Source: an uncultured Thermotogae bacterium
Lineage (GTDB): Bacteria > Bipolaricaulota > Bipolaricaulia > UBA7950 > UBA9294
Length of the DNA: 43,573 nucleotides
Reading direction: 5' to 3'
Assembly: GCA_964593295.1 (NCBI GenBank)
Contig: CAZQHD010000002.1
Coordinates: forward strand, 1-43,573
Position numbers and translations under genes: made by a program. This document shows positions 6,733-43,573 of this stretch, piece by piece. Position 1 is the stretch's first letter. Each line of letters starts with the position of its first letter. The notes under the pieces are model-generated. The model searched no databases and had not been told where the DNA came from. It saw only the letters and a list, made by a program, of their open reading frames with translations.

Positions 6733-7158
6733 ATGCAGAGAAAAAGGGAGCACTCATTGAGGAACGGTTGGTCGCCGCTGGTCATCCTTCTCTGGACTCC
6801 GCGCGTTCTGGCCATGGCCTTCATCCTGTTGATGTCCATGTACACGGTCGATGTCTTCGCTGACGGAAGGGAGTTCTGGGCAACCGGGGCAGCGTTCGTC
6901 CAACGTCTTGTGCCCGCATTCAGCGCACTGTTCGTTCTTCTGCTCGGATGGCGACGAGACGGCCTGGCGGCCTTGGGTTTCCTGGCGTTGTCCGTTGCCT
7001 ACGTCGTTGCGCTGGGAGGATGGGGGGCCTTGCCGGACTCAGCTGTCCTGGTGGTGCCGCCGGCGGGAATCAGCCTGGCGTTCTTTGCGAGGATGAAGCT
7101 GCTCCAGCGGGGCGTACGCACCGGGGTCGACCCGCGCCGGAGCGGGGAGTCTCTGTGA
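6733..7158 (+). CDS. small integral membrane protein, unknown function
   Basis: Four predicted hydrophobic helices (LVILLWTPRVLAMAFILLMSM, LVPAFSALFVLLLGW, LAALGFLALSVAYVVALGGW, AVLVVPPAGISLAFFA). I prefer the internal ATG at 6733 over the track start at 6598, because the first 45 residues look non-coding. Confidence 0.55.
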   Translation: MQRKREHSLRNGWSPLVILLWTPRVLAMAFILLMSMYTVDVFADGREFWATGAAFVQRLVPAFSALFVLLLGWRRDGLAALGFLALSVAYVVALGGWGALPDSAVLVVPPAGISLAFFARMKLLQRGVRTGVDPRRSGESL

Positions 7159-7862
7159 CGAGATACTCGTGGTTGATCCTCGACGCGGATGGCACGCTGC
7201 TTGACTTCGAGGCGGCAGAGCGCCGGGCTCTGAAGCGTACCCCTGAAGAGATCGGCCTGACCGTTCCGCCGGCGTTCCAGGAGACGTATGCATCGGTCAA
7301 CGCCGAGCTCTGGGGCGCTTTCGAACAGGGCCGGATCGGAGCTTGGGATGTCCGGACCCGAAGGTTTCGCGAGGTGTTCCGGCGCCTGCGCCTCGAGGCA
7401 GACCCTGACAGATTCAGCGAATCGTTTCTCCGGAATGTCATCCATGGATCGACATTCATGCACGGGGCAGAGCAGCTGCTGACCGATCTGCGCGGGCGTG
7501 TGCGTCTCCTCCTGTTGACCAATGGTTTCTCAGACGTTCAGAGAGCACGGATTGAGCGACTCGGACTAGAGTCGGCGTTCGACCACGTGATCATCTCCGA
7601 GGAGGTAGGCGTGGCCAAGCCCCAGCGAGCCATCTTCGACCTTGCTCTTGAGCAGATGGGACAGCCGGAACGGGGATCGGTGCTTGTTGTGGGCGACTCG
7701 TTGGCCTCCGACATCCTGGGTGGACTGAGCAGCGATCTGGACACGTGTTGGTTTAACCCTGACCGGGAGCCCTGTCCGACCGAGTTGCGTCCGACCTATG
7801 AGATCGTCTCCTTGGAGGCGCTACCGTCCCTCCTCGGTCTCTGCGAGCCGTTTGATGCGTGA
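7155..7862 (+). CDS. HAD-IA hydrolase, YjjG-like nucleotidase family
   Basis: Motif I LILDADGTLLDF, LLLTNG, KP in VGVAKPQRAIF, and motif IV VVGDSLASDILGG. The GTG start at 7155 overlaps the upstream stop (GTGA). The track's longer N-terminus (6948-7154) lies inside the preceding gene. Confidence 0.8.
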   Translation: MTRYSWLILDADGTLLDFEAAERRALKRTPEEIGLTVPPAFQETYASVNAELWGAFEQGRIGAWDVRTRRFREVFRRLRLEADPDRFSESFLRNVIHGSTFMHGAEQLLTDLRGRVRLLLLTNGFSDVQRARIERLGLESAFDHVIISEEVGVAKPQRAIFDLALEQMGQPERGSVLVVGDSLASDILGGLSSDLDTCWFNPDREPCPTELRPTYEIVSLEALPSLLGLCEPFDA

Positions 7863-35487: not shown

Positions 35488-36072
35488 CTATGGAGCAAAC
35501 AGGGGGATCGGGCTCTGTCTCGTGCCCCCCGTTTCTCTCTTCCTCGCTCTGGATCCGCTCCCGTGGGTTGGGCGGACGGCCGTCCGGGGCAGGGAGTCCT
35601 GGACGAGAACCCTGGAGAACCCTTCCTCGGGACGAACCGCCTCATAGCACCGGGCCATGGCGTCAAACCGCTCTCTTGAGAGCATGGTGACATCGATGCG
35701 AGGGCGATGGAGGCGGAGGGCCTCCATCTGTCGACAGAGCCGCGCGTACAGCTCGTCGATCGGTGTGTGGGGCATCACGACAGCCACGGTCTCTCGGTCG
35801 CACAGGCGACCGAGCTCCACATACGATCCTCGTTCGGATCGAAGGAGGTTGAGGTCGTCGATGCACACAGTGACCGCTGGAGACTCGACTGCCTCGATCA
35901 CCATGGCGGAGAAGATGCGATCGACCGATTCCTCGTACTTCGATGCATACGTACAGGAAAACACCTCGTGTCGGATCACGTCCCTGCACACGATGGCACT
36001 GTGGCTCTTCTCCTCAAGAAAAAGAGACTTGCCGGACCCCGGAAGCCCGACCATCACGACAAGCTGTCTCAT
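35488..36072 (-). CDS. P-loop ATP-binding protein (AAA_33 / small kinase-like)
   Basis: Walker A at the N-terminus (MRQLVVMVGLPGSGKSLF) and a Walker-B-like VCIDDLNL. The size and layout resemble polynucleotide/gluconate-kinase-like P-loop kinases. Confidence 0.7.
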   Translation of the reverse strand: MRQLVVMVGLPGSGKSLFLEEKSHSAIVCRDVIRHEVFSCTYASKYEESVDRIFSAMVIEAVESPAVTVCIDDLNLLRSERGSYVELGRLCDRETVAVVMPHTPIDELYARLCRQMEALRLHRPRIDVTMLSRERFDAMARCYEAVRPEEGFSRVLVQDSLPRTAVRPTHGSGSRARKRETGGTRQSPIPLFAP

Positions 36073-36082
36073 CCCCCCCCCC
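36073..36082 (-). repeat. homopolymeric G10 tract (C10 on the + strand) abutting the start codon of the P-loop kinase gene
   Basis: The + strand reads CAT CCCCCCCCCC TCTCTCTG. On the coding strand this is CAGAGAGA GGGGGGGGGG ATG. Confidence 0.9.
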
Positions 36083-36173
36083 TCTCTCTGCGCTTCTGTG
36101 GTTCAGTATGCGGAAGAACGGGAGGAGCCGTCAAGGAATCATGGGGAGAAGCTCGGCCTGCGTACGCTGGATC

Positions 36174-37541
36174 TTAAGGCTGAAGGGCTTGATATGCATC
36201 GATGAGCCCTTGACCGCTCCAGGAAGCGGATCCATGTCCCTCGACCGGGACGGCGGATGCAAAGAGAAGGGCCACCGCGTCCGCGCTGGACAACGTTGGA
36301 TAGGCAGACAGGACAAGCGCCAGAACTCCGGAGACATGCGCGGCGGCGAATGATGTCCCGGAGCGGGTTGCGGTCTGCCCCCCCGGCAGGAACGAAACGA
36401 TGTCGGCGCCGGGCGCACAGAAGGCAACCTCCGGCCCCCAGCTGCTGAATCCCGCGCGCTGGTTGTTCTCGTTGACGGCGGCGATTGCCAGAACATGCGG
36501 ATACTTCCCAGGGTACAGAACGCCGACTTGTCCGGTGTTCCCGGTAATCCCGACGACGATGAGCCCTGCCTGGACGGCCCGTTGCAGCGCTCGTTCGAAC
36601 GTGGCCGGAGGCTGAGAATGGGCAAAGATGCTGAGGTTGATGATCTGCGCCCCGTTGTCCACGGCGTAGTCGACGGCGCGTGCGAACGTCTCCCAATCGC
36701 GGGAGGAGAACTGGTTTCTGGAGTCCAGGAAACGCACGTCCATCAGGCGAACCCCCGGGGCGACACCGACCATCGGGACCTGACCAGGCTGCGCGGCGAT
36801 GATTCCCGCGACGAACGTCCCGTGCCAGTGCAAAGGGGATCCCACCAGCGAGCAGGGGTTGTTGTCGCGGAAGTCCCAGCCGTGGATGTCGTCAATGTAT
36901 CCATTCCCATCGTCATCTCTTCCGGTTCCGTCGATCTCCTGAGGGTTGATCCACATGCTCTCCGTTAGCTGTGGGATGGAGTGATCAACTCCCGAATCGA
37001 TGACGGCAACGATCACCTCACGACGCCCATGGGTGATCGTCCATGCCTCCATCGCAGAGATGTGTCGAAGCCCCCAGTTGATCGGGGTCTGGTAGAGGGT
37101 GCGCAGCCCCTCTCCGTGGGTGGACCTCTTCGGCGCAAGCGGCAACGGAACGGGCAGGATACGAAACGGAAGCCCCCGGGAGATGACCGCGCCCGAGGTG
37201 GTCTCCAGCACGACTTCCGCCAGGTAGACCCCGGGGATCTGAAACTCCCACCGGCTGGTCACCGAGACCTCCCTCGATGCGCCCGAAGACAGTGTGAATC
37301 CGTCAAACGAAAGGACCTCTACCGGTTGTCCTCCGGCATCGGAGAGGACCGTCCGGCCACTGGGAACATCCCACGTAGACTCGCTGCGATTCGTCACACG
37401 GAACGTCACCTCGAACGGTGTCAACTGTGTCACGTCCAGGTCGGAGATCCAGTCGGTGGCGGGTGACTGGGCGGCGCCGACCAGAACACCGAGAAGCAGT
37501 GCGACGATCAGACCGAAGGGGGCAAGCAAACGCGGGGTCAT
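36174..37541 (-). CDS. secreted subtilisin-like serine peptidase (S8 family)
   Basis: Signal peptide. An N-terminal beta-sandwich-like domain. Catalytic triad blocks VAVIDSGVDHS (Asp), HGTFVAGIIAA (His) and SGTSFAAAHVSG (Ser). The ATG overlaps the upstream stop (ATGA at 37538-37541). Confidence 0.9.
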   Translation of the reverse strand: MTPRLLAPFGLIVALLLGVLVGAAQSPATDWISDLDVTQLTPFEVTFRVTNRSESTWDVPSGRTVLSDAGGQPVEVLSFDGFTLSSGASREVSVTSRWEFQIPGVYLAEVVLETTSGAVISRGLPFRILPVPLPLAPKRSTHGEGLRTLYQTPINWGLRHISAMEAWTITHGRREVIVAVIDSGVDHSIPQLTESMWINPQEIDGTGRDDDGNGYIDDIHGWDFRDNNPCSLVGSPLHWHGTFVAGIIAAQPGQVPMVGVAPGVRLMDVRFLDSRNQFSSRDWETFARAVDYAVDNGAQIINLSIFAHSQPPATFERALQRAVQAGLIVVGITGNTGQVGVLYPGKYPHVLAIAAVNENNQRAGFSSWGPEVAFCAPGADIVSFLPGGQTATRSGTSFAAAHVSGVLALVLSAYPTLSSADAVALLFASAVPVEGHGSASWSGQGLIDAYQALQP

Positions 37542-38836
37542 TCAAGCATGTCACCCATGCTTCCCAGCAATCGATCCATGATCTCGTCGAGGGGACGGGT
37601 CCCCGTCTGCTCCCATCCCATCGGCACGATCCTGAGGGAGAACGCCCCCTTCGTCTCCAGAAGGAGTGTGGGGAGCTGTGTTTCCAGTCGCCGTGCGGCG
37701 ACGGCGGCCCCCTCCGGAGGGGTCTCCGGCAACAGGGTGACGAAGCGGTTCTCAGTGATGCGGAACAGCGAGTCGACGGCACGAAGGTTCCGAACCAGGA
37801 AGCCTGCTGTTTGGATCAGCCCGTCGTCCCGGATCTCGGGCGAAAGTTGATCGAGTCCCTCCAGTTGCACCAGCAGCACCGAGGTGGGGTGTTTGTAGCG
37901 ACTTGTCTTGAGTAACTCTCGTTCCAGTTCTGTGCGGAAGTGGTCCACCGTATAGGCTCCAGTCAGCTCGTCCAGGACCACCAGCTTCAGTAGCTCCTGT
38001 TCATGCGACCGGATCATGTGGGTCATGAGATTGTACCCGTCTACCAGTTTGCTGATCTCATCGCGCTGCCGGGTACCAGGGAGCCGACAGGACCCGAGAG
38101 AGACCTGCTGACCGCTCTGTCTGCGGGCGACCCTGCCCATGCCACGGGCGATCCTGGCAATCGGCTGCGTCACGATCGACCGAAGGGCAAGCGTAAGCAG
38201 CCCCCCGAGCACGAGAATGCCCACCAACGTACCTCCCCCATACTGAACCGCTAACCGGGAGACATACATGATCTGCTCATCGAGTGACAGATCGACGATG
38301 ACAACCCCTATCAGATCTGCGCCTGAGAAGATCGGGTAATGGGCTCTGAGAAGCGGAGTATCCGCTGTCCGTGTCCGTTCGACTTCGACGGCCTCCATCG
38401 ACTCGTATCGAAGCTGGGTGGACTCATCAGCCAGTAGGCCCACCTGGGTCGGATCCGTACCGGCCACGGTCAAGAATCCACGCGCACTGCGACCGACCAC
38501 GCGGATCCCGATCACGGATGTGTGCCGCTCCAGCATCCGCCCGATCTCTGTGTCCAGCGACTCAGAGTAGTAAAGAACGTAGTCCTTGTCCTGAATGGAG
38601 CGTGAGATCACGGTGGCCACCGCGCGCGCGCGGGACTCGTAGATGGCAGAGATCGACGAGGTCAAGGACGTCCAGGAGAACCAGAAGAGCGCACCGATCA
38701 CGAACAGCGTGATGCCGACGACAAGCACCACCAGCTTCCCGTAGAGGCTGGTTCCGTGTCGGATCGCAGAACGAATCCGCGACAGAAAGTGGGGACGAGA
38801 AATGGGTTCTTCCCTTCTCTCTTTGTTTGCATCCAT
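37538..38836 (-). CDS. membrane sensor protein with HAMP and a degenerate (non-catalytic) GGDEF domain
   Basis: TM, periplasmic region, TM, then HAMP (VTQPIARIARGMGRVA...ISKLVDGYNLM), then a GGDEF fold starting LDELTGAYTVDHF. The signature position reads RITENRFVTLL instead of RxGGDEF. The ATG at 38836 follows AGAGGAG. Confidence 0.75.
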   Translation of the reverse strand: MDANKERREEPISRPHFLSRIRSAIRHGTSLYGKLVVLVVGITLFVIGALFWFSWTSLTSSISAIYESRARAVATVISRSIQDKDYVLYYSESLDTEIGRMLERHTSVIGIRVVGRSARGFLTVAGTDPTQVGLLADESTQLRYESMEAVEVERTRTADTPLLRAHYPIFSGADLIGVVIVDLSLDEQIMYVSRLAVQYGGGTLVGILVLGGLLTLALRSIVTQPIARIARGMGRVARRQSGQQVSLGSCRLPGTRQRDEISKLVDGYNLMTHMIRSHEQELLKLVVLDELTGAYTVDHFRTELERELLKTSRYKHPTSVLLVQLEGLDQLSPEIRDDGLIQTAGFLVRNLRAVDSLFRITENRFVTLLPETPPEGAAVAARRLETQLPTLLLETKGAFSLRIVPMGWEQTGTRPLDEIMDRLLGSMGDMLE

Positions 38837-38846
38837 GGTGTCTCCT

Positions 38847-41183
38847 CTAATCGTTCGAGCGGCGAGACGGGGCCAGATAGTCCCGTGCAACCTGCTCCAC
38901 CTCTCTGCGGAGCAGGCGGATCTGGCTGACCAGGCGGTGAACGACCTCACTGGTCAGGTGTTCTTCCATCTCTGTGATCAGGGACTCAAGCTCCGGGAGT
39001 CTCTGGAGGGTCTCCTTTCGGACGGCCAGAAGAAGCGGATGATCCGACAGGGCGTTCCGGTCGTCCTTGAGGAGAACAAACCCGGAAAGGCTCAGGGTTT
39101 CCTCCAAGCGAGGGACGATTGCGATCTCCACCGAGCCGAGCTTCAGCAGGGTCTCCACCTCTTCCAATCCACGGTTCTCCTGAATCATCTCCAGGCATTC
39201 GGACAACCCGTACGACTGCAGGAAGGGTTCGAACGCCTCCTCGCTCCACGGTGAGGGCCAGACGGTTCGAAGCATTCCGTCACGATCCGAGCACAGGGCC
39301 GACAGTGCCGAGAGATCTCGATCCGAAAGCGACTCAGCGAGCACGGGCGAGATCGCCAGCCGCCATCCGTCAACCACCGACATTGTCGTCCAGAGCACGG
39401 TCTCGTCGTCGGGTCGAAGAACGGGCAACAGAGTCGACATCGGCCGAAGCCAGACGATATCCGCGTCTCCGTCCTCGAATGCCTGGAGAACGCGCTCTGA
39501 TGACTCTAGCCCCACCAGATCGACCACCTGATACCCGGCTTCGATGAGCATCTGTTTGAGGATCGTACCCAAGAGAAGCTCCACCGTACTCGATCCGCCG
39601 CCCACGGCCACGGATCCTCTCCAAGCAGTGGTCTCCAGCGAGACGTTCTCGGAAACGACCGCACGGTGAGGATCGCGCGTCCGATCCTCTCCCCACCAGT
39701 TTCCGCCCGCGGACAACGAAGGTACGTCTTCCGTTTGGATGTCGTACTGTGCGTTGCTCTGGAACAGATTACGGGTCAGCAAGGGAGGGTCGCTCGGCCT
39801 CTCGATCGACCCGGTAACGCCCAGACGACGAAGATCTTCCTCGATCTGTGAGGGATCCCGTTGCCACTTCAAGCCCACGTCGTTGCCGGCCAAGAGATTG
39901 CCGTCCACGTGAAGCCGACCCGCGGAGCCGATAAGCAAGATTCCTAGACGGTTGCCGGTGAGCGCGTTGCTTGAGAACAGGTCGTCTCCCGTCGCGAAGC
40001 CAAGCAGCCCCCACGCGCACGAGGACAACACGTTGTCCACGACCTGTTGCTGTCCGAGTGAGTGCAGCACAGAGATCCCGCCGCGTTGGGCCGAGGTGAT
40101 CGTGTTGCGGAGAAACACGGTTCCGCGCGACCCGATCGAGACCATACCGTGTTCTCCGCCGGAGATGGCGTTGTCGTGCACCTGATGGTGCTGTCCCCGG
40201 ACAAGCAGGAGTCCAGTCTGGCGACTATCGGACACGGTGTTTCGAAGGAACCTTCCATTCGCGGCCGGACCGACCCGGATTCCGTCCGCGCAGTCGGAGA
40301 TGGCATTGCCTTGAACCAGTGTCCGGGGGCTCTGCTCGATGAGCAGGCCCGAGGTGCCGCACCCGCTGACGTGGTTGGACACGAGTGCGTTCTCACGTCC
40401 GCCTATGAGGACGATGCCCGACTGCTGGGATCGCTGAACCGTCGACTCTTGGACTCGGCTCTGGACCGTTCGATCCATCCGAATTCCCGCCTGCTCGACG
40501 GCCTCCACGCGGGAGCGTTCGATCTCCACGACCTGAGCGTCTTCCACCAGGATCCCGGTGGGCACGGCGCGGATTGTCATGAACCGTACACTGATGGCGT
40601 CGACATTCCGGAGAAGAACGCCCGCGTATGAACTCCCCGAGACGCTCCCATGGAGGAGATGGCTCTGCGAGGCCCCCTCTCCCACGAGCAGTCCGATCTG
40701 GCCCCCGCGCACGTGGACGGACCTGAGCGTGCACCGAACGGCTCCTCGCAGTTCGATCCCCACGGTGGCTGCCTGGACCTCTGTGTCCGTGATCTGAGTG
40801 TCACTTCCCCCTATGAGAATGCCTGCGGCCTCGGAACGAACGGAGATCCCTCGGACGCTGACGTCGTCGGCCGCCAGCGTCAGCGCAGCGCCCTCCTCGG
40901 GGCCTGTCCAGGGGATCCTCTCCTTCCACGAAGTGATCGTGATGCCGGGGACCTCGATCGAGACTGGGCCATGCACGATGCCCACGGACGGAAGCAGAAT
41001 GATGACATCCCCAGGCGCCGAGCGATCGAGCGCGGCCTGCAAGGTGGCGACATCCCGAGGAACGACAATAGCCTCCGACGGGAGACGAGGCTGCCGAACA
41101 GCCCAGAGGGTCCCGGCTGCCAACAACAGCAACACCAGACCCACAACCAGTGCCGTCCGTCGTGTCCACCGGGAGTTCATCAT
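38847..41183 (-). CDS. membrane-anchored fusion protein: NosD-like parallel beta-helix repeats plus a C-terminal OpuAC/ProX-like substrate-binding domain
   Basis: N-terminal anchor TALVVGLVLLLLAAGTLW. About 400 residues of roughly 22-aa PbH1-type repeats (..V.GN.I..C..GI.V..). The C-terminal roughly 230 residues (LLLGTILKQMLIEAGYQVVDLVGLESSERVLQAFEDGDADIVW...) resemble the glycine-betaine-type binding fold. Confidence 0.65.
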   Translation of the reverse strand: MMNSRWTRRTALVVGLVLLLLAAGTLWAVRQPRLPSEAIVVPRDVATLQAALDRSAPGDVIILLPSVGIVHGPVSIEVPGITITSWKERIPWTGPEEGAALTLAADDVSVRGISVRSEAAGILIGGSDTQITDTEVQAATVGIELRGAVRCTLRSVHVRGGQIGLLVGEGASQSHLLHGSVSGSSYAGVLLRNVDAISVRFMTIRAVPTGILVEDAQVVEIERSRVEAVEQAGIRMDRTVQSRVQESTVQRSQQSGIVLIGGRENALVSNHVSGCGTSGLLIEQSPRTLVQGNAISDCADGIRVGPAANGRFLRNTVSDSRQTGLLLVRGQHHQVHDNAISGGEHGMVSIGSRGTVFLRNTITSAQRGGISVLHSLGQQQVVDNVLSSCAWGLLGFATGDDLFSSNALTGNRLGILLIGSAGRLHVDGNLLAGNDVGLKWQRDPSQIEEDLRRLGVTGSIERPSDPPLLTRNLFQSNAQYDIQTEDVPSLSAGGNWWGEDRTRDPHRAVVSENVSLETTAWRGSVAVGGGSSTVELLLGTILKQMLIEAGYQVVDLVGLESSERVLQAFEDGDADIVWLRPMSTLLPVLRPDDETVLWTTMSVVDGWRLAISPVLAESLSDRDLSALSALCSDRDGMLRTVWPSPWSEEAFEPFLQSYGLSECLEMIQENRGLEEVETLLKLGSVEIAIVPRLEETLSLSGFVLLKDDRNALSDHPLLLAVRKETLQRLPELESLITEMEEHLTSEVVHRLVSQIRLLRREVEQVARDYLAPSRRSND

Positions 41184-41274: not shown

Positions 41275-41592
41275 TTATGCGTCGCCGAGCATCTCCACCC
41301 CGATTGATGCCAACCAACAGAGGAAGCTGTTCTCGATCGTCGAATCGTAGAAGCGCAAGGATTCAGGACCGTGGGAGGTGGTGAACCGGCGAAGATACGC
41401 CATGATCTCCTCCCAATCCTCCGGCGGCATGCCGTCACGGATCTGGTGCGCCTTGTCGACGCGAAGCTTGGACAGGATCTCGTCGACGGTGAACGCCTGC
41501 AGCTCCCGGACCTGATCGAACGTGAGGTCGCGACCTTCGTCGAGCAGACTCAACACGCCGTGGATGAACTTTCGAGCCGAGCTTCGGTACAT
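41275..41592 (-). CDS. hypothetical small acidic helical protein
   Basis: 105-aa ORF with coding-like composition (MYRSSARKFIHGVLSLLDEGRDLTFDQVRELQAF...). I recognise no family. It stands alone between two larger transcription units. Confidence 0.4.
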   Translation of the reverse strand: MYRSSARKFIHGVLSLLDEGRDLTFDQVRELQAFTVDEILSKLRVDKAHQIRDGMPPEDWEEIMAYLRRFTTSHGPESLRFYDSTIENSFLCWLASIGVEMLGDA

Positions 41593-41864
41593 TCTGTTCT
41601 GCCTCCTTCCGGGAACGATCCCGAGGCTCCGCCGCTGAATCCCGTGATCAAGCGACAGGCGGCTTCATCCGAGCCCGTACGCCGGATCCTTGTAGCATGC
41701 ATGTTTCATCTACTTGATTCCAGGGCTGACAAGTGTGGTGTGTAGAACGGACGGGATCTCGTTCTTCCTGTAAGATGAGAAGGTTTCGTACGGCGTCGAT
41801 CCGTGCATGCAGCAGCCTTCCACGGTGTGATGTGGGACGGATGGTCGCCAAGAGAGGGGGCAAC

Positions 41865-43573
41865 ATGACGGGAAGGTATGCGGGGGCGGTGCTGGCGATC
41901 CTAGTCCTCTTGTCGATTGCGGCGATCGCACAGTCCGTTCAGCTGAGCGGGCCCGATCAGTTGGGGCGCTGTGAGGAAGAGGTCTTCTCGATCACGTTCT
42001 CTACCTCTACCGTTCAGACCGCCAGTCAGATCGTCGTGACCAACACTCGGTCGCCGAACGGATTCGAGTACGTCTCGGGGTCGGCCACGGTGACGCTTCA
42101 CGACGGCACCGAGATCCTTGACGATCCGATCCAGACAGGACTGGATCTTATCTGGAATCTGGACGTTCTTCTCGGTGCGGCCTATGAGCTTCCGCCCGGG
42201 GAGCAGATCGCGCTGTCGTTCGAGCTGGAGACCTCCTGTGGGACGCTTTCCGGCAACGACGAGGTGCAGGTGGAGTACCTGTCCGACGGAGCCCCCGGGA
42301 TCCGCACCGACGCGCTGTCCACGGAGATCCTTCCCGGCGCCGTGCTGATCTACAAAACGCCGGGCGTGATTGAGGCGCGCGTCGGAGACGTCGTCGAGTG
42401 GACGCTGTCCCTGGAGAACACCGGGTTCGGCCCGATCTACAACGTGGTCGTGACCGACCTTCTCGGCTCTGGGCTCAGCTACGACTCGTCCACCCCGGTG
42501 GGGTCGAACGTGGGGCAGACGACGGTTTGGGAGATCGATGAGATCCTCGCCGGAGGGGCCGTAGATCTCGTGCTTCGGGCCGAGGTCACCGCCTGCTCCG
42601 GACTAGACAACCAGGCCGACGTGCGGTTCGGCTGCGACGACGGCTCGATCTGCTTCGACACAGCGACAGAGGGAGGAACGGCCACGGCGTCGATTCTGCT
42701 CCTTCTGGAGAACCCCCTTCTCGACTGGACCCCTCCGACGATCGAGATGCCGTACTGCAATCCCGACGGCGTGCAGGTCAGTCTCCCGATCACCAATCAA
42801 GGGGAAGGGTCGGCGCGGAACATCCGATTGTGCATTGATTGCGATCCGCTGGTGGTGGAGAACGTTCAGCCCGGGGCCGAGTATATCGGCGGCTGTTTCG
42901 TGCTTGAGGACCCGCTGCCCGGCGGAGAGACGTTCACCCTCCTGTTCACCGTGCGCTATCCCGGGGACTGGTGTGCCGGGGCGCCCAGCGGCACGGTCCT
43001 ATGTGAGACGATCTACGAGAACGATTGCGGGGTGGAGTTCCGCCCGCCGTCGAACTTCGGCTCGTTCTCCACCACCTATGGCCCCAGCGGGCCGCCGTCC
43101 GTGTCGGCGTCCATCAGCGGGCCGAGCGAGACCTACGTGGGGAACCTGGGGACGTACAATGTCTCCGCCGGCTTCTCCGGGCTGAGTCAGTGTGGAGAGA
43201 GCGGAGAAACCACCGATGTGGCGGTGAGCGTGGGTGTGCCGGACGGGTTCACGGTCGAGGACGCCGGCGGAGGAGCCTGGACGCCGGGCGCGGGAGGCAC
43301 CGGCGGAACGATCGCTTGGATCCTCGCCTCCGATGGCCCGCCACTCAACACGCAAATCGATCTTCGCGTGCCGGGCACCGAGTTCTGCTTTGAACTGGCC
43401 ACGGCGACGATCTCGGCCACGGCGGTCGATTGCTGTGGATGTGATCTCAGCTCCAGCGGATCCACGACCACGGCCATTCAGTGCGACGAGTTCGTCGACT
43501 CCAGCCGGTCGGCCGGCCCGTCCACGGTGACCAAGTGTGCCTCCACGACGTATACCAATAGCTACAACTTCCT
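41865..43573 (+). CDS. large secreted DUF11-repeat (conserved repeat domain) surface protein, 5' part, open at the window end
   Basis: My own translation from the ATG at 41865 finds no stop in frame to 43573, so it is absent from the track. Signal peptide MTGRYAGAVLAILVLLSIAAIAQS. DUF11 signature ARVGDVVEWTLSLENTGFGPIYNVVVTDLLGSGLSY. Many paired cysteines. Confidence 0.8.
   Translation, partial: MTGRYAGAVLAILVLLSIAAIAQSVQLSGPDQLGRCEEEVFSITFSTSTVQTASQIVVTNTRSPNGFEYVSGSATVTLHDGTEILDDPIQTGLDLIWNLDVLLGAAYELPPGEQIALSFELETSCGTLSGNDEVQVEYLSDGAPGIRTDALSTEILPGAVLIYKTPGVIEARVGDVVEWTLSLENTGFGPIYNVVVTDLLGSGLSYDSSTPVGSNVGQTTVWEIDEILAGGAVDLVLRAEVTACSGLDNQADVRFGCDDGSICFDTATEGGTATASILLLLENPLLDWTPPTIEMPYCNPDGVQVSLPITNQGEGSARNIRLCIDCDPLVVENVQPGAEYIGGCFVLEDPLPGGETFTLLFTVRYPGDWCAGAPSGTVLCETIYENDCGVEFRPPSNFGSFSTTYGPSGPPSVSASISGPSETYVGNLGTYNVSAGFSGLSQCGESGETTDVAVSVGVPDGFTVEDAGGGAWTPGAGGTGGTIAWILASDGPPLNTQIDLRVPGTEFCFELATATISATAVDCCGCDLSSSGSTTTAIQCDEFVDSSRSAGPSTVTKCASTTYTNSYNF

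Follow-up and report, generated by a model that had tools for sequence, protein, structure and literature searches.

Switches in which cyclic di-GMP (c-di-GMP) governs the retention of surface adhesins are known from Proteobacteria, as the Lap system (PMC3032553), and from sulfate reducers, where the Dvh system is built with other parts (PMC13090378). LapD of Pseudomonas fluorescens is the founding case of a c-di-GMP-controlled periplasmic protease (PMC3032553), and a 2026 study of Desulfovibrio vulgaris described DvhD, a Cache-bearing receptor with a dead HD-GYP domain, which controls a periplasmic protease (PMC13090378). The present analysis concerns a three-gene cassette, G1-G2-G3, in a 43,573-nucleotide stretch of DNA (the window; positions 1-43,573, forward strand, of contig CAZQHD010000002.1, assembly GCA_964593295.1) from an uncultured Thermotogae bacterium assigned by GTDB to Bipolaricaulota (UBA9294). 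The genes encode a fusion of a beta-helix with a binding-protein domain (G1), a membrane protein with a degenerate GGDEF domain (G2), and a secreted subtilase (G3). The cassette is real and represents a unit of inheritance in one Bipolaricaulota family. Its function is read, tentatively and at slightly less than even likelihood, as a Lap- or Dvh-like c-di-GMP switch for the periplasmic proteolysis of surface proteins, assembled from unrelated parts. Bipolaricaulota is a deep-branching phylum from which, to our knowledge, no member has been cultured and whose signalling biology is almost undescribed. The first-pass annotation of the window knew of no description of this combination, and the literature searched likewise holds no account of the G1-G2-G3 set in Bipolaricaulota/Acetothermia; no subtilase-based Lap analogue turned up there either.

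All three genes lie on the minus strand, and the 10-nt gap and 4-nt overlap noted at first pass were recovered by open reading frame (ORF) calling and by reading of the sequence. The G1 stop codon TAG is followed by AGGAGACACC and then by the ATG of G2, and the stop of G2 and the start of G3 overlap as ATGA (37538-37541). A longer alternative frame of G2, with a GTG start, extends to 38950. This layout predicts a tight, co-translated operon, and the spacing suggests co-transcription.

In order to establish the distribution of the cassette, 40 related genomes (24 of the same family and 16 from seven sister families) were searched with each of G1, G2, and G3, a full-length G2 orthologue being defined by E<1e-50. 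A gene map was built over 15 loci of relatives, and public assemblies with independent gene calls and Pfam labels supplied further loci through exact-protein look-ups of G2 homologues. The panel genomes are kin, and the counts of cassettes and adhesins are descriptive, not statistical. The first-pass annotation had made its reading depend on co-localisation of the genes in relatives, and the G1-G2 pair, usually with G3, does recur: full-length G2 orthologues were present in 16 of the 24 family genomes, representing 11 of the 18 genera of the family, and in 0 of the 16 genomes of the seven sister families. Orthologues of G1 were found in 19 of the 24. G1 is immediately upstream of G2 wherever the contig extends far enough, and G3 is immediately downstream of G2 in 14 of the 16 G2-bearing genomes. 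The same order and orientation were observed across the 15-locus map, and the public-assembly look-ups show the same arrangement. Over 19 loci the three proteins agree in their pairwise identities (r 0.88-0.95), with G1 evolving at approximately twice the rate of G2 and G3. In four loci of more distant genera (L020-L023) the trio is intact while both flanks consist of unrelated housekeeping genes, including MatE, an aminoacyl-tRNA synthetase, Amidase_3, HhH-GPD, CysRS, PALP, and CbiQ. Since the trio is kept despite this turnover of the flanks and the identities are congruent, the three genes are inherited as one unit. As a separate observation, the cassette proteins of the window are unusually divergent for a 'same genus' comparison, at 35, 58, and 60% identity for G1, G2, and G3, respectively.

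For G2, searches against Pfam returned GGDEF (1e-8), HAMP (3e-4; 21.5 bits, just below the 25-bit cut-off, with most orthologues carrying a recorded HAMP match), and a weak match to PelD_GGDEF. Pfam and the translation agree with the earlier description of a HAMP protein with two transmembrane (TM) helices and a GGDEF fold whose signature reads TENRF. A total of 123 G2 orthologues of approximately 430 aa were recovered, and every organism-bearing source name among them is Candidatus Bipolaricaulota. Fifty were aligned, with 46-80% identity to G2 of the window (46-61% for all but the closest). The family consensus at GG[DE]EF is G/S/A/T-x-x-R-F with no conserved acid at positions 3-4, the substrate Asn is replaced by Thr in 47 of the 50 sequences, and the DxD/FK motif is degenerate, from which G2 is very probably a catalytically dead cyclase. 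The inhibitory site (I-site) is retained. Its RxxD lies five residues upstream of the signature motif, and profile alignment to solved active cyclases (PDB) places R352 and D355 on the RxxD site and R383 on the AERIR helix. The spacing of 3 and 28 residues is that of R359/D362/R390 in PleD. Neither an enzymatic nor a DNA-binding output domain was detected in G2 with Pfam and NCBIfam, there was no EAL match, and the protein ends approximately 70 residues past the GGDEF motif.

An intact I-site alongside a dead active site (A-site) marks c-di-GMP receptors of the GGDEF type, an example being PelD (named in PMC3032553). G2 is read as probably a c-di-GMP receptor because its A-site is dead, its I-site is invariant, and no other output domain is present. 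By sequence, it carries the features of the I-site receptor class, namely loss of the A-site together with RxxD and the downstream Arg. Further degenerate-GGDEF I-site receptors are YdaK of B. subtilis, PopA, and CdgA. Like PelD and Listeria PssE, G2 has lost GG[DE]EF, kept RxxD, is membrane-bound, and is encoded in the operon that it would control; unlike G2, these receptors act on cytoplasmic or membrane synthase partners, have no Cache-HAMP relay to the periplasm, and are not known to be paired with a subtilase or a NosD/OpuAC fusion. The genome of the window contains five strong GGDEF genes and six HD-GYP genes, and no EAL gene was found in it (91% complete); judged by this gene content, the host can make and degrade c-di-GMP. 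A homologue of Omp85/BamA is also present, which points to an outer membrane and makes a periplasm likely.

The conservation of G2 and of the locus bears on the reading that no joint mechanism exists, the three being co-transcribed envelope genes kept by descent in a narrow lineage and G2 a decayed cyclase without signalling. Confinement of the cassette to one family is in keeping with this reading, as is the long synteny around it in related genomes, which includes OsmC, DRTGG, and a two-component pair. However, the trio persists where both flanks have been replaced, a second divergent copy of the cassette is found in one genome (L019), start-stop coupling is retained, and decay would not leave R352, D355, and R383 invariant at the overall identity of all but the closest of the 50 orthologues. 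The reading is held to be very unlikely.

Comparison with the Lap system (LapD-LapG-LapA; PMC3032553, PMC5231407) revealed a shared plan, consisting of an inner-membrane receptor with a periplasmic domain, HAMP, and a dead GGDEF, encoded in one operon with a secreted protease and near a giant repeat adhesin. The input by c-di-GMP and the output by periplasmic proteolysis, as proposed for the cassette, would also be shared. The components differ. The c-di-GMP site is an EAL domain in LapD, whereas G2 has none and binding is predicted at the GGDEF I-site, and the LapD/MoxY output domain of LapD is replaced in G2 by a WalK-like single Cache domain. LapG is a BTLCP cysteine protease, whereas G3 is an S8 serine protease with a Ser-His-Asp triad, and G1 has no Lap counterpart. 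LapA is exported by a type I secretion system (T1SS) and bears an N-terminal retention module, whereas the adhesins next to the cassette have Sec signal peptides and no shared retention module was seen in them; the loci examined yielded no T1SS genes. Membership in the LapD family was rejected, as four of the five features tested (output domain, EAL sensor, BTLCP protease, T1SS adhesin) are absent and only the juxtamembrane HAMP followed by a degenerate GGDEF is shared, with HAMP below cut-off in the window protein. The cassette is thus not a member of the Lap family, though it may work like one. The DvhD-DvhG-DvhA system (PMC13090378) is similar in placing a periplasmic Cache domain on an enzymatically dead c-di-GMP-turnover domain as the sensor. 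It differs in that DvhD is dCache-PAS-HD-GYP and G2 is sCache-HAMP-GGDEF, that DvhG is still a BTLCP protease and the Dvh operon includes a T1SS, and that no beta-helix/binding-protein partner is present. A further rebuild of the Lap logic is plausible because sulfate reducers have already rebuilt it with other parts (PMC13090378).

Under the proposed mechanism, the simplest one to draw on every conserved feature, cytoplasmic c-di-GMP would bind the I-site of G2, and the HAMP linker and two TM helices would pass the change outward to the periplasmic Cache domain (inside-out). The Cache domain would work with the co-translated, membrane-anchored G1; a complex of G1 with G2 is somewhat probable, and together they would hold or release the secreted protease G3. 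The action of G3 would thereby determine the retention or trimming of large surface proteins. The adjacent giant adhesins would be its likeliest targets, and the identification of an adhesin as the G3 substrate is offered with more doubt than confidence. The domain content, the dead active site beside an invariant I-site, the joint inheritance of the genes, and the frequent proximity of adhesins are demonstrated; c-di-GMP binding, the G1-G2 complex, the control of G3, and the adhesin as substrate are inferred. In a more elaborate form, considered unlikely, the cassette would be a coincidence switch that fires only when c-di-GMP meets an extracytoplasmic ligand or surface polymer, with G1 as obligatory co-receptor, and would represent a third independently assembled architecture and the first with a GGDEF I-site sensor and a subtilase effector. 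If the proposed switch is correct, Lap-type logic would have arisen at least three times, here through a GGDEF I-site receptor, a subtilase, and a NosD/OpuAC fusion, and would extend to Bipolaricaulota. A function would be assigned to a family of approximately 800-aa beta-helix/binding-protein fusions found by HMMER nearly nowhere else. Furthermore, an expressible three-protein system would be available for the study of a dead cyclase domain driving a HAMP relay outward.

Table 1. Coordinates of the cassette genes, their parts, and neighbouring features (window positions unless a locus is named).
Feature	Position	Strand	Description
G1	38847-41183	minus	778 aa; NosD-like right-handed beta-helix and C-terminal OpuAC-fold domain, predicted extracytoplasmic
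G1 N-terminal TM segment	41097-41159	minus	RTALVVGLVLLLLAAGTLWAV; read from sequence; helix of residues 3-29 in AlphaFold2 model
G1 beta-helix	39684-41069	minus	approximately residues 39-500; DSSP strand ladder in AlphaFold2 model
G1 C-terminal domain	38868-39626	minus	periplasmic-binding-protein fold, OpuAC/ProX/YehZ/EgtU type
G1-G2 gap	38837-38846	minus	10 nt; holds Shine-Dalgarno-like AGGAG (sequence read)
G2	37538-38836	minus	432 aa from ATG; TM, single Cache, TM, HAMP, degenerate GGDEF with intact I-site
G2 TM1	38672-38740	minus	
G2 periplasmic single Cache	38228-38671	minus	residues 56-203, between the two TM helices
G2 TM2	~38159-38227	minus	
G2 HAMP linker	38009-38182	minus	Pfam, residues 219-276
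G2 I-site RAVD (R352-x-x-D355)	37772-37783	minus	invariant in 50 orthologues
G2 degenerate active-site motif TENRF	37742-37756	minus	replaces GG[DE]EF; translation
G2 I-site partner R383	37688-37690	minus	invariant in 50 orthologues
G3	36174-37541	minus	455 aa; secreted S8 serine protease with extra N-terminal beta-rich domain
G3 signal-peptide-like N-terminus	37470-37541	minus	sequence
G3 N-terminal domain	37152-37460	minus	residues 28-130; beta-rich, ~100 residues
DUF11/CLIPPER fibrillar-adhesin gene	41865-43573	plus	divergent, cut by contig end; Pfam DUF11 4.7e-17
Small conserved protein	41275-41592	minus	105 aa; upstream of G1
AAA_33 P-loop kinase-like gene	35488-36072	minus	downstream of G3; Pfam AAA_33 1.8e-8
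PAS-GGDEF-EAL	L034:5518-7188, L035:4033-5703, L016:13978-15648		relatives only

The periplasmic Cache domain of G2 was modelled with AlphaFold2 at a predicted local distance difference test (pLDDT) of 77 and a predicted template modelling score (pTM) of 0.73. Comparison of the model with the PDB using Foldseek yielded the extracellular domain of WalK/YycG as the top matches (template modelling score 0.63-0.70, query-normalised), led by 9a5d, a WalK-YycH model. The LapD output domain was not among the 50 fold matches listed, and there was no Pfam LapD_MoxY_N match in G2. The NCBIfam WalK N-terminal module NF033092 aligned to residues 37-278 at 31 bits against a cut-off of 725. G2 resembles WalK (YycG) with YycH/YycI in its TM-Cache-TM-HAMP layout, in this best structural match to its ectodomain, and in the membrane-anchored extracytoplasmic proteins encoded alongside, which for WalK are regulatory partners; it differs in that WalK has a histidine kinase output and G2 a dead GGDEF. 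Assignment of G2 as a WalK sensor kinase was rejected, as only the TM-Cache-HAMP part matches and neither HisKA nor HATPase_c is present.

These results bear on a second reading, in which the cassette is an outside-in or coincidence sensor. The binding domain of G1 would capture an extracytoplasmic ligand, which may be a product that its own beta-helix releases or binds, and present it to the Cache domain of G2, with G3 as an accessory. The GGDEF-like domain of G2 would then change state and act by protein contact on a cyclase or phosphodiesterase, such as the PAS-GGDEF-EAL protein of relatives, or would sequester c-di-GMP. Analogues of such presentation of ligands or partners are LuxP for LuxQ and YycH/YycI for WalK; the operon of WalK encodes membrane-anchored proteins that regulate it, a parallel that favours the reading. 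The WalK-like Cache and HAMP of G2, by fold and by NCBIfam, point the same way, as do the strong conservation of the Cache domain (47-64% identity to seven orthologues), the confirmed binding-protein fold of G1, the constancy of the G1-G2 pair with G3 optional, and the PAS-GGDEF-EAL gene adjacent to the cassette in relatives. The genome of the window, however, has neither the PAS-GGDEF-EAL partner nor any EAL gene, the canonical OpuAC ligand cage is apparently not kept in G1, and the only invariant functional site in the GGDEF domain of G2 is that for c-di-GMP, which points to an input from inside. We also know of no means by which a dead GGDEF domain emits a signal alone. The reading is regarded as improbable, though not negligible. 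The first-pass annotation had proposed an extracytoplasmic ligand-sensing complex; that proposal is partly supported, the genes being co-localised in relatives and the C-terminal domain of G1 having a binding-protein fold, but an inside-out flow or coincidence detection is likelier than a plain outside-in flow because G2 has an invariant I-site and no enzymatic or DNA-binding output.

G1 has strong matches to Pfam Beta_helix (6e-57) and NosD (1.5e-28), and its beta-helix also matches the Pect-lyase_RHGA_epim model. The OpuAC match (1.2e-15) scored 58.3 bits against a cut-off of 21.2 and covered profile positions 2-256 of 257; together with HAMP, GGDEF, and Peptidase_S8, all of the domains that the first-pass annotation proposed for searching therefore score in Pfam. 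In the AlphaFold2 model of G1 (mean pLDDT 82.6) an N-terminal helix leads into a long right-handed beta-helix, after which comes a two-lobed alpha/beta domain. To judge from its sequence, the N-terminal segment may be a membrane anchor or a cleaved signal peptide. The beta-helix of the window protein lacks approximately 45 residues (one to two rungs) relative to orthologues, except for the closest relative, as seen from a gap in the alignment. Word-indexed homologue searches with G1, as single sequence or profile, returned 3-5 proteins, as beta-helix repeat words swamp the index, and a pattern scan of genome contigs for G1 relatives yielded none that was confirmed.

The C-terminal domain of G1 had been described as a binding-protein fold of the glycine-betaine type, and the fold is confirmed. 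All of the top 43 Foldseek matches in the PDB belong to the ProX/YehZ/OpuBC/OpuCC/EgtU family, with E values down to 3e-11 and template modelling scores of 0.63-0.74 (target-normalised). Within this fold the domain is an outlier. HMMER searches with it against 1.84 billion representatives yielded only 170 proteins at E<=1e-3. The best matches were mostly fusions of approximately 800 aa that carry the domain C-terminally, as well as shorter fragments, and ordinary binding proteins of approximately 300 aa entered the list only from approximately 5e-11 downwards. The same list includes proteins of 900-1450 aa (P0178, P0183-P0196) that match the domain in 4-6 separate stretches, which suggests, by sequence, proteins with tandem OpuAC-like domains.

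The glycine-betaine part of the description is doubtful. In local alignments the Tyr of 'RYTGT' in OpuBC/OpuCC corresponds to Pro in G1 and the Tyr of 'FPPYD' to His (the N-lobe alignment is weak), and the consensus of the G1 family has no conserved aromatic residue at either position. These are two of the tyrosines of the aromatic cage for a quaternary ammonium ligand. No ABC permease or ATPase gene adjoins the cassette in any locus examined. Given the apparent replacement of these residues and the lack of a neighbouring ABC permease, a glycine-betaine ligand is doubted, and the G1 domain probably lacks the aromatic cage. G1 thus shares with OpuAC/ProX/YehZ/EgtU its C-terminal fold and the Pfam OpuAC match, and with NosD a beta-helix that passes the Pfam cut-off, but it is a fusion behind a membrane anchor in which the cage tyrosines are apparently replaced. 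It has the OpuAC fold and not the OpuAC gene context. Likewise, the earlier description of NosD-like repeats holds for the beta-helix, and the identification of G1 as NosD proper was rejected, since the equivalog model TIGR04247 scored 83.7 bits against a cut-off of 300, no nosZ or nosFY genes were found in the loci examined, and only the generic Pfam NosD and Beta_helix models pass.

The beta-helix is also the starting point for a third reading, in which the cassette is a c-di-GMP-gated glycan module. G2, as a receptor of the PelD/PssE/YdaK kind, would activate or position the beta-helix of G1 on an envelope or matrix polysaccharide, G3 would mature or turn over the machinery, and the adjacency to adhesins would be incidental. 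AlgG and pectate lyases have beta-helix folds of the CASH type, and G1 scores with Beta_helix, NosD, and Pect-lyase_RHGA_epim. G2 has its weak PelD_GGDEF match, and a glycosyltransferase gene lies three genes downstream in one locus (L028). Control of exopolysaccharide by degenerate-GGDEF I-site receptors is established for PelD (named in PMC3032553) and Listeria PssE (PMC4125290). However, invariant columns of the beta-helix are mostly Asn and Gly of the repeat, and for that reason no enzymatic site can be named; no AlgG or pectate lyase catalytic motif was identified. PelD-type receptors have no periplasmic Cache/HAMP relay, the loci examined share no synthase, polymerase, or exporter gene beside the cassette, and the recurrent neighbours are adhesins and dockerin proteins rather than glycan genes. 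This reading is considered quite unlikely, though less so than the absence of any joint mechanism.

G3 is a regular S8 protease. The Pfam Peptidase_S8 match (3.9e-44, 151.6 bits) is accompanied by D182, H240, N335, and S397, which are invariant in 11 orthologues and represent the D-H-S order and the oxyanion Asn, in agreement with the intact triad reported at first pass. The extra N-terminal domain ends in a conserved Pro-rich linker, ILPVxLPLAP, that leads into the catalytic domain; invariant positions of the alignment include SRW-FQ and I128/P130/L133-P134-L135/P137. This domain shows weak similarity (E 0.001) to part of c10, a neighbouring protein with a dockerin. The possibility that G3 is a mycosin was rejected, as it scored 194.1 bits with TIGR03921 against a cut-off of 278.75 and has no hydrophobic C-terminal tail.

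Short S8 orthologues of approximately 360 aa, 53-57% identical to the catalytic domain of G3, lack the N-terminal domain and match G3 residues 152-453 only. They occur in the same class, including genomes without G1-G2. In two complete genomes of a sister family (f6) the order is gyrB, short S8, and, directly downstream, a CLIPPER_2/Big_9/LTD surface protein of 1670-1897 aa (L040:6644-13377 in G032; L041:366-7690 in G035). A small ribbon-helix-helix ORF was noted between the short S8 and the surface protein in G032. In another family (f7) the short S8 precedes dockerin- and cohesin-bearing surface proteins, and in those genomes of the window's own family that lack the cassette it adjoins a dihydrolipoyl-dehydrogenase-like gene. 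In G021 a NosD-like gene lies two genes away from the short S8; the possibility of a split cassette was rejected there, as the similarity is that of generic beta-helices and the intervening ORF is apparently spurious.

DUF11, the domain of the gene divergent from the cassette, has been renamed CLIPPER; it forms the stalks of fibrillar adhesins and contains isopeptide bonds (bioRxiv 10.1101/2025.04.25.650565). The giant size of the window adhesin is deduced from relatives because its frame is cut by the contig end; the counterpart in L030 is 4622 aa, and the signal peptide and N-terminal domain of the window protein are also found in the L030 and L018 adhesins. A giant adhesin is divergently upstream of the cassette in 13 of 19 assessable loci, with sizes in relatives from 1100 to more than 4600 aa and with one of two stalk types, CLIPPER or Cadherin_4/Cadherin_5/Big_9 repeats. 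All of the adjacent adhesins have Sec signal peptides. The link to the giant DUF11 neighbour proposed in the first-pass annotation is strengthened by this adjacency and by the short S8 beside surface proteins in two other families, with the substrate role itself still conjectural.

Several observations weigh against the proposed switch. At no fewer than four loci (L028, L031, L024, and L019 copy A) the G1-G2 pair has no G3 beside it. For this reason proteolysis cannot be the sole output, and G1-G2 is taken as the constant core. The remaining six of the 19 assessable loci have no adjacent adhesin, and Big_9 adhesins, tested for confinement to cassette-bearing genomes, also occur in family genomes without the cassette. 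A common N-terminal cleavage module was rejected, as the adjacent adhesins carry at least five unrelated head domains. Adjacency to adhesins may in large part be synteny kept by descent. L028 and L031, both from one assembly, have similar types of flanking genes; their independence is uncertain, and they may represent a single segment that was duplicated or two populations binned together. On the modelled fold, the Cache domain of G2 appears nearest to that of WalK, a classical outside-in sensor, and not to LapD. Finally, divergence of G1 does not follow adhesin type, as an adaptor role would have it, and G1 identity merely scales with that of G2 and G3; the model gives G1 no specific role.

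Adhesins with unrelated heads have in common a C-terminal region of approximately 250 aa, in which a Lamin-tail domain (LTD) is followed by a conserved segment ending in ...FWI-YG-G....PV..T (L028:1994-7438, L031:669-7181, L033:659-6394, L019:5561-9943). The genome of the window encodes the LTD-containing region in three further proteins (C27, C28, C32), and the region is thus not cassette-specific; it may serve in anchoring or sorting in this lineage. Secreted proteins with modules resembling type I dockerins and cohesins accompany the S8 lineage in two families (L035:5794-6861, 6913-7413; L045:10406-13398), which hints at a cohesin-dockerin style of surface assembly in Bipolaricaulota.

The small conserved protein encoded upstream of G1 has no Pfam or PHROG match and no apparent TM segment. 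Orthologues lie between adhesin and cassette in L033, L034, and L035, and also form cluster c16, and the protein may be a dedicated regulator of either transcription unit. By eye it is approximately 70% identical to the copy in L016, and a plus-strand ORF at 41371-41745 is apparently a shadow of its gene. In many relatives three genes are inserted between the small gene and G1, encoding a PAS-GGDEF-EAL protein with intact motifs, a dockerin-bearing secreted protein, and an anchored protein of 166 aa; the genome of the window is without them. The PAS-GGDEF-EAL protein has 556 aa, and in six relatives or more its gene lies next to G1 on the upstream side.

On the other side of the cassette, the AAA_33 gene follows G3 in 10 of the loci examined and is absent in L020-L022. 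It is separated from G3 by a 101-nt gap with a promoter-like site at 36105-36134 and is probably not part of the module. A run of ten G residues (36073-36082) directly precedes its ATG.

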